Positions 14,553 through 57,823 of a stretch of DNA of 58,371 nucleotides are shown here, in pieces (positions within the stretch are counted from its first letter, which is position 1; each line of letters opens with the position of its first letter). Position numbers and translations under genes: made by a program. The stretch lies in the sequence record OZ035775.1; one strand, given 5' to 3'. A model generated the notes under the pieces. It did no database searches. It saw only the letters and a program-made list of their open reading frames with translations, and was not told the DNA's origin. This stretch comes from Sashavirus BDX09P1.

Positions 14553-14861
14553 ATGATGTTTGAACATCCGTGGAACATACCTGCATATGATGCTGAAAGT
14601 GAAAAACAATCACTTGACTATCAAATGAAAACACAACAAGTAGACTGGAGTGAAGCGCCAGACTGGGCTACATGTGTTGTTCTTAATAAGACAACAAACA
14701 CTTTTGCATGGTCTGACGGTTCAATGTACGCACCAATTTTAAGAAATCCACCACAAATTATGGAGAATGCTGATGACTTTGAAATCTTTGAAAAAACGCC
14801 CTTGTGGTCCAGCAACACCTGTCAAAACAAAACTGTTAATGACACCGAAAGCCCGTGGTAA
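14553..14861 (+). CDS. hypothetical protein
   Basis: Track ORF; GAGGAA RBS. Confidence 0.4.
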   Translation: MMFEHPWNIPAYDAESEKQSLDYQMKTQQVDWSEAPDWATCVVLNKTTNTFAWSDGSMYAPILRNPPQIMENADDFEIFEKTPLWSSNTCQNKTVNDTESPW

Positions 14862-15312
14862 CACTTATGAAGAATTCATCGCAACCGGGTGGAACGACGA
14901 CCAGTTAGTCGAACATGGTTATGCTATTCGTATTACAGACAAACGTTCCTGGTCACCAATGACCGTCGGAACTGAAACAATTACACCACCTTCAAATTGT
15001 CGGTGTACATTCACCCCTGTTCAACAACCATCAACAGCGTCTGACTTACTGAAACAGGCTGAACAGCTACTGACAGAACGTGGTAAGCAGTATGACACGT
15101 ATGGTCAGGAACGTTCGTCAGCTAAAATCGTTGCTGCGTTTAACACAATTACCGGGCGTGACTTAACACCAGGTGAAGGGTGGTTATTCCTGATGCTGTT
15201 AAAAGCGGTTCGTTTCTATTCCAATACTGAAACACCACATCGTGACAGTCTGGAAGACTTGATCAGCTATGCTGCATTACATGCAGAGGAATATCTTAAC
15301 AATGAACGGTGA
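14767..15312 (+). CDS. hypothetical protein carrying a TYEEFIATGWNDDQLVEHGY motif (start uncertain)
   Basis: Track ORF; true start may be the internal ATG near 14842; motif shared with C-terminus of the DUF2815-like protein. Confidence 0.4.
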   Translation: MLMTLKSLKKRPCGPATPVKTKLLMTPKARGNTYEEFIATGWNDDQLVEHGYAIRITDKRSWSPMTVGTETITPPSNCRCTFTPVQQPSTASDLLKQAEQLLTERGKQYDTYGQERSSAKIVAAFNTITGRDLTPGEGWLFLMLLKAVRFYSNTETPHRDSLEDLISYAALHAEEYLNNER

Positions 15313-27754: not shown

Positions 27755-28050
27755 TCGACTTCCTCTTGTGGAACGATAAGACAGACGGGGACGACCTGGA
27801 CTGGGTTACACAAGGGGCGGCTGCACGTGGTATATCTGTTCCGGTTGTTGTACAGAAACGACCTAGATTGCGACCTGATGCTATATTTTTTTGGAATGCT
27901 TACGTGGATCTGATGGAAGCTGATTGGGTTGCTTGTGAGCGATATGCACGGGTGTATAACGTTGATGTACAATTCCTATGGAAATTATTGGTAGCGTTGC
28001 GGTCTGCACGTGTTGTCGAGATGAAGAAAAATAAACACAAGCCCGGTTAG
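27745..28050 (+). CDS. GT-like C-terminal extension reached by -1 frameshift
   Basis: -1 frame is open from 27745 and spans track ORF 27766-28050; heptamer A_AAA_AAC at 27745-27751 in the G frame. Confidence 0.5.
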   Translation, partial: KKLIDFLLWNDKTDGDDLDWVTQGAAARGISVPVVVQKRPRLRPDAIFFWNAYVDLMEADWVACERYARVYNVDVQFLWKLLVALRSARVVEMKKNKHKPG

Positions 28051-28063
28051 TTCCGGGCTTTTT
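28041..28063. terminator. hairpin terminator
   Basis: GCCCGG-ttagtt-CCGGGC + TTTTT; same hairpin sequence as near 781 and 1466. Confidence 0.55.
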
Positions 28064-28317
28064 CATTTATGTAGTCGAGGATTGCAGGAGAGTATTTAAA
28101 CCACTCTGTAGCACCGTCAAAACCTTTAAGACGCGCGTTAAGTTCGTGATAGACCTTGTGTACCTCTTGTTCCAGTTTATACGCGTCGGCGCCTTGTGGG
28201 AACGGATACGACACGAGTTTAACCACGGGGTGTGGAGTTCGTCGTTGTAGTTGTCGTAGTCGCTGTTTTAAGTCGTTTGTAATACCAACTTTAAGCAGAG
28301 TAGGACACTGTTTATCG

Positions 28318-28959
28318 TCAGAACACGTAGAGCGTTCCGTGTTCTGACGGGTTAAAACCTGTTTCAGCGCACTGGGGGCAACCTTGTTTCATTGAAGTGT
28401 GATTGTTCGGAGTTTGTTCAAACACACCGTGTTCTGAACAAATGATTTTTACAAGGGTGGAATTGTTAACATACTCCACCAACGAATAGTCGTAATGGTC
28501 CCCGTGAACTTCGTGAGCACGAGTAATGAATTCTTCGGCGGATGAACGTCTTTGTTCAGACAATTGTTCCCAAGCACATTGTAGGCAACCTGCTTTTTGC
28601 TGCAAGTGACTATATGGACGTTGTTCAAACACTCCATGTATCGGACAGATGATTTTCACAGGAGTACACCGATTAACATACTCCACCAACGAATAGTCGT
28701 AACGGTCCCCGTGAACTTCACGGGCGCGTGTAATAAACTCTTCTGTGGTTAAACGTTGTTGCTTAACTGCACATTGGGGACAACCTCTCCCGCGAACATG
28801 ATTATTAGGAATCTGTTCAAACACACCATGTTCAGGACAGGTGATCTTCACAGGAGTACACCAATTCACATACACCACTAGCGAGTAATCGTATTTGTGC
28901 CCATGAACTTCACGGGCACGTGTGATAAATTCTTCTGTGGTTAAACGTTTCCTACTCAT
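28318..28959 (-). CDS. triple-repeat Cys-containing protein
   Basis: Three ~68-aa repeats each with EEFITRAREVHGD+YDYSLVEYVN...VKIICPEHGVFEQ...GCPQC; no GIY-YIG, HNH or LAGLIDADG catalytic motif seen. Confidence 0.55.
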   Translation of the reverse strand: MSRKRLTTEEFITRAREVHGHKYDYSLVVYVNWCTPVKITCPEHGVFEQIPNNHVRGRGCPQCAVKQQRLTTEEFITRAREVHGDRYDYSLVEYVNRCTPVKIICPIHGVFEQRPYSHLQQKAGCLQCAWEQLSEQRRSSAEEFITRAHEVHGDHYDYSLVEYVNNSTLVKIICSEHGVFEQTPNNHTSMKQGCPQCAETGFNPSEHGTLYVF

Positions 28960-54250: not shown

Positions 54251-55018
54251 ATGGCTAACATTAACTCCCTTCGCAAGCTATCTGATACCGATAAAACCAA
54301 CGTAAAACGTGGTAACGCGTATCGTATTGATCCGCGTATCATCAAGATTCGCCCAGGACATAACCCACGCGGTGTATTTACCGACAACTACTGGGAAACC
54401 GAAGCAGCACTGGCACACATTGAAAACTTTCGTCAGGCTTATACTAACGGTGATTTCGTTCCACCGATCGTGGTACAGGTTGTTGACGGTGTTCCGTATG
54501 TCCAGGATGGTGAGCATCGTTTACGTGGCGTGTTAGCAGCTATTGAAGCCGGGACGCCGATTCTGACAGTAGACGTTGTTGAATCGTCCGGTGACGAACT
54601 ACAACAGACCCTGACACTATTAAAAGGTAATGAGGGTAAACCGTGGTCACCCGTTGAACGTGCTGTTATTTACGGTCGTTTCCGTTCATACGGCATGAGT
54701 GTTGAGCAGATCGCTACACAGGTCGGTAAAACCGTCCAACACGTTTACGAACAACTGAATATTCTTGATATGCCACTGGAACTTAAACGTCGTATTCAGA
54801 ACGGTGAAATCAGCGCATCAGCAGCCATTCGCCAGTTTAAAGCAGGTGATAAAGAACCAGTAGTAACGCGTCGTCCGCCTGCTAAACTGGTACGGTCCGC
54901 AGTGGAAGCAATCCGTGGTGAATGGTCTGTAACCCGTTCGGAAGGTGGTAAAGTCCTGGTTGAACTTACCGCTGAACAGTTTGAAGCGTTAAAAGCACTG
55001 AAGGAGCACCAGTTATGA
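54251..55018 (+). CDS. ParB-like nuclease-domain protein
   Basis: ParB N-terminal signature VQDGEHRLRGVLAA (GERRxRA-like). Confidence 0.65.
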   Translation: MANINSLRKLSDTDKTNVKRGNAYRIDPRIIKIRPGHNPRGVFTDNYWETEAALAHIENFRQAYTNGDFVPPIVVQVVDGVPYVQDGEHRLRGVLAAIEAGTPILTVDVVESSGDELQQTLTLLKGNEGKPWSPVERAVIYGRFRSYGMSVEQIATQVGKTVQHVYEQLNILDMPLELKRRIQNGEISASAAIRQFKAGDKEPVVTRRPPAKLVRSAVEAIRGEWSVTRSEGGKVLVELTAEQFEALKALKEHQL

Positions 55019-55203
55019 AAAACCGTAAAGCAAAGATTCTGTTAGTTCGTAGAAACGGTCCCGGCGTCTGGCAGTGGGTGAGACTCAGCAATCGACGAAT
55101 GGGGTTAATGAAATATTACGGGATGATGGTTGGTGGTTTTTGCAAAAAGCCCAGCGCGGCGCAAAACCGCTGGAAAAACCACCTGCGTACTAAAGGAGAC
55201 TAG
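55015..55203 (+). CDS. hypothetical basic protein
   Basis: Track ORF. Confidence 0.35.
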   Translation: MKNRKAKILLVRRNGPGVWQWVRLSNRRMGLMKYYGMMVGGFCKKPSAAQNRWKNHLRTKGD

Positions 55204-55835: not shown

Positions 55836-56407
55836 ATGACACCTGAACAATTCGCAACAGCAGCACACGGTGATCAACTTCGTAAGTACACCAATGACCC
55901 ATATGTTAACCACTGCCGGAACGTTGCTGAACTGGTTAAACGCTATGGTGGTACGCCGGATATGGTTACCGCTGCCTGGCTGTGCATGACGTCGTTGAAG
56001 ATACTCCCGTGACTGTGGGTGATGTGTGTTCGCAATTCGGTGAAACTGTGGCACGTTATGTTGATCAGCTTACTGATGTGAGTCGTCCACACCACGGCAA
56101 CCGCGTTAAGCGTAAAGCACGGGACATCGACCATTTATCACGGGCTGAACCTGTGGTAAAAACCATAAAACTGTGTGATCTGCTGGATAACACCTCTTCA
56201 ATTGTCCGACACGATCCGAAGTTTGCTGTAACATACCTGGCTGAAAAACAAATCATGCTTGTTCACCTGTCAGACGCCAGTAATCAGGAGTTATACGCGC
56301 TTGTTGAGCGTGAATTGTTTAAAGCCAAATACAAACTAACGAACGTCCAGTTAACCGCGTTTGACAAACACTACGACGCACTGGTTAAAGCGATGGGGGA
56401 GTTGTGA
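55836..56407 (+). pseudogene. HD-domain (p)ppGpp-hydrolase-like gene interrupted by a frameshift
   Basis: Frame 1 gives ...AAHGDQ...PDMVTAAWL then stops; HD signature HDVVEDT continues in another frame from ~55985; two extra nt (TG) at ~55983-55984 split the conserved AAWL-HDVVEDT. Confidence 0.6.
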
Positions 56408-57097: not shown

Positions 57098-57823
57098 TTA
57101 TTGACCCATCATATCTTTATACATCATCAAAACAACATCATCCGGCATATTATCTACATCGCAATGCGGGTTGTGTGACAACGCATACAGTCTGATTTTC
57201 TCCTTCAAATCGCTGACATCGACTACAGGTGGTTCCACTCGTGCTACAGGTGGTTCCACTCGTGCTACAGGTGGTTCACAAACCATCACGTTAAACGGTG
57301 TCCCGGTGCCTTCGTATTTTTCAAGCAAATCAACCATTACATTTACACATTCTGGGGTCCATCCCCGGCGCAAACCATTCTGAATCCAACTATCAGTAAT
57401 TGTGTGTTCGTTTAAATTCCTGCGTAGCACATATCTTGCACATTCAAAATTACCGCACATCGCCTCAAACCGTATCCACACGTCGTGACCGTGAACAGCT
57501 TCCAGGATCTGTGAATCAACGTATCTGACACGTTGCCAGTAGTTATTAGCAAAACGCCTGTGTGGTAATTTCTGACGCAGTTCGGTAACCGGTATTGTGC
57601 GTTTAAGAACAACTTCACCAACATCAATCACCGGATCCAGATTCGGCAACCCAAGTTTTTTCATGATGATGTTAAGCGTGGTAGCCAGTGGGTACTGCTT
57701 ACCCGCCATCCATTCGTTATAACGACCAACTGAAATTTTAACGTCGTGTTCAGCAAGATAATCAACAGCCTCGCGTAAACCACCCATCGCATCAGCAAAT
57801 TCTTTAAAAATATTCTTTTTCAT
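57098..57823 (-). CDS. putative HTH regulatory protein with EPPVARV repeats
   Basis: N-terminal region resembles a small HTH (CII/Cro-like pattern); in-frame EPPVARV x2.5; next to iteron-rich AT region. Confidence 0.4.
   Translation of the reverse strand: MKKNIFKEFADAMGGLREAVDYLAEHDVKISVGRYNEWMAGKQYPLATTLNIIMKKLGLPNLDPVIDVGEVVLKRTIPVTELRQKLPHRRFANNYWQRVRYVDSQILEAVHGHDVWIRFEAMCGNFECARYVLRRNLNEHTITDSWIQNGLRRGWTPECVNVMVDLLEKYEGTGTPFNVMVCEPPVARVEPPVARVEPPVVDVSDLKEKIRLYALSHNPHCDVDNMPDDVVLMMYKDMMGQ
57223..57280 (-). repeat. 21-bp in-frame tandem repeat (about 2.7 copies)
   Basis: CTACAGGTGGTTCCACTCGTG repeated. Confidence 0.8.

Follow-up and report, generated by a model that had tools for sequence, protein, structure and literature searches.

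The complete genome analysed here (Sashavirus BDX09P1, record OZ035775.1; 58,371 nucleotides, hereafter the window) carries a gene whose intact form would encode a PaSpo-like small alarmone hydrolase (SAH), and this gene is broken by a tandem duplication of the dinucleotide TG that is private to the window. As written, the hydrolase gene is a null allele rather than a recoding site or an enzyme made in two pieces. A genuine and recent loss-of-function mutation is slightly favoured as the explanation of the duplication, at about even probability, and an error of sequencing or assembly is almost as likely; all other readings share a small remainder between them.

Results

Structure of the disrupted gene

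The disrupted gene spans 572 nt on the plus strand (Table 1). Its first open reading frame (ORF1) runs from the ATG at 55836 to the TGA at 56010-56012; the product begins MTPEQFATAAHGDQ, reads in full over its in-frame part as MTPEQFATAAHGDQLRKYTNDPYVNHCRNVAELVKRYGGTPDMVTAAWL, reaches VTAAWL and then continues with nine out-of-frame residues, CMTSLKILP. The second frame has no stop from 55940 onwards, shows the signature (V)HDVVEDT... from 55982/55985 (translation from 55985, HDVVEDTPVTVGDV...) and closes with the TGA at 56405-56407. The codon starts of ORF1 are divisible by 3 and those of the second frame leave a remainder of 2, which is the offset of a 2-nt insertion. The duplicated TG falls between the Leu49 and His50 codons, turning CTG-CAT into CTG-TG-CAT, and within the TGTG repeat the extra pair can be placed at either 55981-55982 or 55983-55984. 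Translation as written stops after 58 residues and leaves 140 residues, with the HD and ED motifs, in the other frame; the break leaves His11, Arg16/Lys17 and His26 on one side and the HD, ED and Asp114 motifs on the other. The original prediction had located the N-terminal part (...AAWL) and the HDVVEDT signature in different frames, separated by two extra nucleotides, TG, at about 55983. The reading of the frames, the contiguous halves of the domain match and the single 2-nt gap in an alignment with orthologues (both described below) bear this out.

Table 1. Positions of the hydrolase locus features and of the two other private frameshifts in the window
Feature	Position	Strand	Basis
Whole disrupted gene; its orthologues in PJ16, Bas82, PDP46 and AVIO78A are hydrolase genes of 570 nt and 189 codons	55836..56407	+	Sole length difference is one 2-nt gap; 95-97% nucleotide identity
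ORF1: native residues 1-49 (His11, Arg16-Lys17, His26), nine out-of-frame residues, TGA	55836..56012	+	HD_4 profile positions 3-47; tblastn 100% to residues 1-49 of PJ16 and AVIO78A
Dcm-type motif CCTGG (CCWGG), 2 nt upstream of the TG duplication	55975..55979	+	Possible role in a base-calling artefact
TGTG, the tandem TG duplication (2-nt insertion)	55981..55984	+	Single TG in PJ16, Bas82 and PDP46; TA in AVIO78A; allele private to the window
Second frame: native residues 50-189 and stop (His50-Asp51, Glu54-Asp55-Thr56, Asp114, Asn118, C-terminal helical extension)	55985..56407	+	HD_4 profile positions 47-128; 96-97% identity to relatives (tblastn)
GTGA: TGA of ORF1 overlapping a GTG (Val58) of the second frame	56009..56012	+	Read from the sequence; any function conjectural
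Second private frameshift: A6 run (A5 in Bas82 and AVIO78A)	14553-15312; run 14791-14796	+	Genome-wide comparison with relatives
Third private frameshift: 2-nt deletion, GAAC against GTTAAC or GCTAAC (PJ16, 536P12, Bas82)	28047-28959; site 28321/28322	-	Genome-wide comparison with relatives

A shift of frame anywhere in 55940-56009 would yield a full-length protein, and this geometry is all that speaks for programmed recoding, in which slippage during transcription, or a ribosomal shift of -1 or +2, would make a little full-length hydrolase and thereby regulate its dose. The permissive zone 55940-56012, however, lacks any XXXYYYZ heptamer and any homopolymer of at least 4 nucleotides, the only repeats being ATAT and TGTG, in line with the original prediction, which had seen no obvious slippery sequence. 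All seven full-length close orthologues are unshifted, and because they are single-frame genes with otherwise identical flanks there is no conserved recoding signal. Recoding is effectively refuted by the comparison with these single-frame relatives together with the absent slippery heptamer, and we regard it as scarcely credible.

It is also highly improbable that the locus encodes a split functional enzyme, in which the 58-residue N-terminal peptide would work together with a C-terminal fragment initiated separately at the GTG at 55982 or at the GTGA. The former GTG, the sole in-frame start upstream of the second-frame residues 50-189, does lie before His50, and the GTGA does form a stop-start overlap, but neither GTG, nor any other start codon of the second frame, has a Shine-Dalgarno-like sequence ahead of it. 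Moreover, a product reinitiated at 56009 would begin with Val58, past the catalytic motifs, and would lack both HD and ED; the metal ligands would sit on two chains divided in the middle of the helical core; and such an arrangement occurs in no relative. Given the missing Shine-Dalgarno-like sequence and the position of the 56009 start, independent expression was judged unlikely, and the second frame is probably not expressed.

Identity of the intact protein

Joining the two frames by removing two bases gives a protein of 189 residues, referred to here as the repaired protein. It matches the Pfam family HD_4 (PF13328) with 55.9 bits (E = 5e-15; curated cut-off 27.2), and the fragments as written score 23.5 and 18.0 bits, each alone under that cut-off. 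The profile positions matched by ORF1 and by the second frame are contiguous (Table 1), so the split is not a matter of chance. Among structures in the PDB, the repaired protein matches Lmo0812 (4e-15), human HDDC3/MESH1 (1e-13 and 1e-12) and Drosophila Mesh1 (3e-11), as well as hydrolase-domain structures of Rel/SpoT proteins from several bacteria. It also matches PHROG 990, 'metal-dependent phosphohydrolase' (2e-38), and the match to TIGR00691 spoT_relA, a profile of 687 positions, covers only profile positions 4-122 (1e-20), which represent the hydrolase and include nothing of the synthetase. A multiple alignment pairs His11, Arg16-Lys17, His26, His50-Asp51, Glu54-Asp55, Asp114 and Asn118 with the metal-binding and catalytic residues of Lmo0812 and HDDC3; in RelA/SpoT-homologue (RSH) hydrolase domains, the Arg/Lys position serves to bind the substrate.

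The repaired protein has the architecture of an SAH, being a stand-alone protein of 189 residues (SAHs have about 180-210) whose domain matches are HD_4 and HD only, with no synthetase, TGS or ACT domain; the frame of the window copy as written is broken at 55981-55984, whereas a functional SAH needs one continuous ORF. Its flanking genes are unrelated small ORFs, encoding a DUF1382 protein and proteins without a family. By these features the intact gene encodes a hydrolase-only, single-domain RelA/SpoT homologue, that is, an SAH, and the closest SAH type, on pairwise similarity alone, appears to be PaSpo of Salmonella phage SSU5. The original prediction that an intact version would be a phage small alarmone hydrolase is thus upheld by HD_4, TIGR00691, the SAH and Rel structures and the 50% identity to PaSpo.

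Comparison with orthologues

The window is the genome of an Escherichia coli siphophage of the Nonanavirus/Sashavirus (9NA-like) lineage (for background on this phage group, see bioRxiv 10.1101/2024.09.12.612763), and over the shared parts it is about 96-97% identical to PJ16, AVIO78A, PDP46, KarinMuster (Bas82) and 536P12. An intact gene of 570 nt and 189 codons, 95-98% identical, is present in seven close relatives. In all four annotated relatives, a 570-nt coding sequence stands at the equivalent position, with the same neighbours as the window gene: PJ16_095 (WKV24598), Bas82_0088 (XPK41804), PDP46_0095 (XNX38465) and AVIO78A_102 (UAW58887). These four share 95-97% nucleotide and 96-98% protein identity with the window gene, but none has the extra TG and each encodes a single protein of 189 residues, whereas the window copy is frameshifted. 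A five-way DNA alignment of the window with PJ16, Bas82, PDP46 and AVIO78A, with a mean column identity of 98%, contains one gap only, of exactly 2 nt. The junction reads GGCTGTGCATGA in the window, GGCTGCATGA in PJ16, Bas82 and PDP46 and GGCTACATGA in AVIO78A (also quoted as GGCTGTGCATGAC, GGCTGCATGAC and GGCTACATGAC, respectively). In 536P12 and two IMG/VR contigs all 189 residues lie in one frame, and the Salmonella phages SP-062 and SP069 are intact across the junction as far as their records extend. Comparison with orthologues in related phages, which had been suggested as a check on the original prediction, therefore found every one of them intact at the junction.

The orthologues are annotated variously, as 'polyphosphate hydrolase', as 'metal-dependent phosphohydrolase' or, wrongly, as 'RelA/SpoT family (p)ppGpp synthetase'. 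The last of these is the label in PDP46 (PQ783785), where it is attached to a hydrolase-only protein despite the absent synthetase domain. In AVIO78A (MZ726797), many product names seem to be shifted by one gene relative to the record's own notes: 'polyphosphate hydrolase' stands on AVIO78A_101, the 570-nt hydrolase gene AVIO78A_102 is labelled 'hypothetical protein', and 'DNA primase' is attached to the 174-nt AVIO78A_083.

The family is under purifying selection, as 32 variable codons show synonymous changes only and 8 show an amino-acid change among the five close sequences. The substitutions private to the window in the hydrolase gene comprise four synonymous changes and two conservative replacements (L139I and A142V). 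That these changes are synonymous or conservative indicates that the break is recent relative to the divergence of the window from its relatives. Apart from the TG duplication, the gene has no second defect, and with private changes of this kind the lesion is very young.

The frameshifted allele itself was not encountered elsewhere. A degenerate 31-nt pattern across the TGTG junction had no match in IMG/VR, in bacterial contigs taken at one genome per species or in JGI metagenomes, and exact-product look-ups returned no record of the 141-aa fragment, the 58-aa fragment or a neighbouring 241-aa protein. None of the complete E. coli genomes searched carries the hydrolase gene. Homologues at a greater distance, with 43-59% identity, occur in large numbers among viral contigs and across many bacterial phyla, and each of them matches in a single frame; the bacterial genome contigs contained relatives only at 43-56% (in diverse Proteobacteria, Planctomycetota and others) and no close orthologues.

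This phage lineage can demonstrably do without the hydrolase gene: Sasha, Sergei, Solent and 9NA have no copy of it, and its 5' part has been replaced in the viral contig IMGVR_UViG_3300045988_047713 (positions 1270-1790). In this contig, the first ~93 hydrolase codons have given way to a 90-aa YAcAr gene (YspA/cpYpsA-related SLOG, PF10686), the end of which runs into a non-functional 3' remnant of the hydrolase gene comprising residues 94-189 (96 codons) at 97% identity. Proteins of the SLOG family are nucleotide-binding, and the contig may represent the exchange of one nucleotide-signalling accessory gene for another.

It is conceivable, but improbable, that the TG duplication is both real and selected, the loss of the alarmone hydrolase being advantageous on the host of this phage, for example if the enzyme were costly or were sensed by a host defence. 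If so, the repeated independent losses (in Sasha, 9NA and the contig just described) would mark an ongoing arms race around immunity of the toxSAS/CapRel type in Nonanavirus phages.

Frameshifts elsewhere in the window

Comparison of the entire window with its relatives revealed two other private frameshifts (Table 1). The longer A run splits the homologue of Bas82_0021 and AVIO78A_035 (246 and 227 aa, respectively, with a C-terminal DUF6378) into ORFs at 14553..14861 and 14767..15312, of which the downstream one has its own ATG and retains the whole conserved domain. The 2-nt deletion splits an accessory homing-endonuclease-like gene just before its T5orf172 domain. This gene encodes three DUF723-type zinc-ribbon repeats and a T5orf172/MUG113 domain (304 aa in Bas82_0047), is flanked by the tail assembly chaperone and tape-measure genes and adjoins a small superinfection-immunity gene. 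Its orthologue in PJ16, PJ16_055 (OQ955832, 26531-27235, minus strand), has two zinc-ribbon repeats rather than three and is independently truncated within the T5orf172 domain by an in-frame stop (...EVHKVYH*LNARLKGFDGATEWF...), and the gene is missing entirely from AVIO78A and PDP46.

A 1-nt difference from PJ16 at 55144 was considered as a further lesion of the window and rejected, since the window agrees there with AVIO78A, the two sharing one reading frame through the end of the small ORF concerned (55015-55203, plus strand). It is PJ16 that differs, by one A in an A-run that gives PJ16_087 another C-terminus, and this represents either a polymorphism in homopolymer length or a sequence error on the PJ16 side. 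On the other side of the hydrolase gene, positions 57098-57823 (minus strand) hold a 241-aa ORF with no assigned function and a short tandem peptide repeat (PPVARVEPPVARVEPPVV), the orthologues of which are 756-798 nt long.

Discussion

The two explanations named in the original prediction, a genuine pseudogene or a sequencing or assembly indel, have proved to be the right alternatives, given that the relatives are intact, that there is no recoding signal and that the allele is absent from the other public collections searched. On the first of these, slippage of replication on TG would have produced a recent loss-of-function mutation in an accessory gene. On the second, the true phage would have a single TG and an intact 189-codon gene, and the extra pair would stem, for example, from long-read base-calling in a short repeat beside a methylated CCWGG site or from insufficient polishing. 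That one genome of 58 kb has three private indels that break a frame (near 14795, near 28322, at 55983), each in an ORF that is otherwise well conserved and carries a single lesion, fits residual indel errors in a consensus; three fresh single-lesion pseudogenes in one such genome would be unusual. The control pair, PJ16 against AVIO78A, shows no frame switch in annotated genes, and the frameshifted allele occurs in no other collection searched. The local context points the same way, with a dinucleotide repeat at the site and the CCTGG motif 2 nt upstream of TGTG. Methylation motifs such as CCWGG are a known context for base-calling errors in nanopore and other long-read data, and the relatives encode cytosine and adenine methyltransferases, so that the DNA is probably modified.

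The distribution and nature of the three indels, in contrast, argue against an error. All three lie in genes that are dispensable or tolerant of splitting, and none has hit the structural and replication genes, which make up ~45 kb and would be expected to receive random errors. For two of the three genes, natural and independent decay is seen in relatives, namely in the contig with the YAcAr replacement for the hydrolase and in PJ16, with its nonsense codon, for the endonuclease-like gene. In addition, the deletion at 28322 (GTTAAC to GAAC) lies outside any typical error-prone repeat, and only one of the three indels is at a long homopolymer. On balance, we slightly favour a private TG duplication that has recently and genuinely inactivated a PaSpo-like SAH gene.

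The gene is of a known kind, a PaSpo-type phage SAH that is intact and annotated in relatives, and there is no sign of a new mechanism or system. The value of the finding lies chiefly in annotation and quality control, as the window holds three suspect indel sites. If the insertion is an error, an intact PaSpo-like SAH should be annotated and the assembly needs re-polishing, two other genes being likewise affected. If the insertion is real, a candidate counter-defence gene has been knocked out naturally in this phage, which together with the near-identical, intact Bas82 and PJ16 would form an isogenic-like pair for testing whether the SAH protects against toxSAS immunity of the CapRel/FaRel type or modulates the stringent response of the host.

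From the homologue in SSU5, at 50% identity, and from the biochemistry of SAHs, a role can be proposed for the intact protein. The PaSpo SAH of SSU5 neutralises all five of the toxSAS toxins against which it was tested, namely CapRel, PhRel, PhRel2, FaRel and FaRel2 (Jimmy et al. 2020, PMC7229694), and PaSpo is routinely used to detoxify CapRel-SJ46 during purification (PMC9712102). SAHs have also been reported to reverse the pyrophosphorylation of the tRNA CCA end by toxSAS enzymes (bioRxiv 10.1101/2021.04.30.441581). In the intact phage enzyme, His26, His50-Asp51 and Asp114 would form the Mn2+ site and Glu54-Asp55 would be the catalytic residues. Its substrates would be (p)ppGpp or (p)ppApp, stripped of the 3'-pyrophosphate, as well as tRNA CCA ends to which toxSAS toxins have added pyrophosphate. 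By analogy, the protein may degrade (p)ppGpp/(p)ppApp, repair pyrophosphorylated tRNA, or both, and a plausible effect of the phage copy would be to dampen the stringent response of the host or to counteract abortive-infection toxins of the CapRel/FaRel type.

Among cellular enzymes, the structures of Mesh1/HDDC3 and of bacterial SAHs (3nr1, 5vxa, 3nqw, Lmo0812 4yf1 and 6yvc) align with the repaired protein over residues 5-128, with E values from 4e-15 to 1e-4, and every Mn2+-binding and catalytic residue of these enzymes is kept in it. They are, however, only ~30-35% identical to the phage protein, which has an additional C-terminal region of ~60 residues. SSU5_099 (YP_006906731), the PaSpo of SSU5, is closer, with 50% identity over residues 6-147 (blastp 2e-44). 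Both PaSpo and the repaired protein are hydrolase-only RSHs of a single domain, encoded by enterobacterial siphophages, and both extend beyond the Pfam HD_4 core and have in common the motifs AHG..Q.RKY, NH, LLHDVVEDT, IKLxDLLDNTSSIV and DPxF..YLAEK. PaSpo differs in its length of 213 residues, in a 17-residue insertion and in a divergent C-terminal tail, and it is intact and experimentally active.
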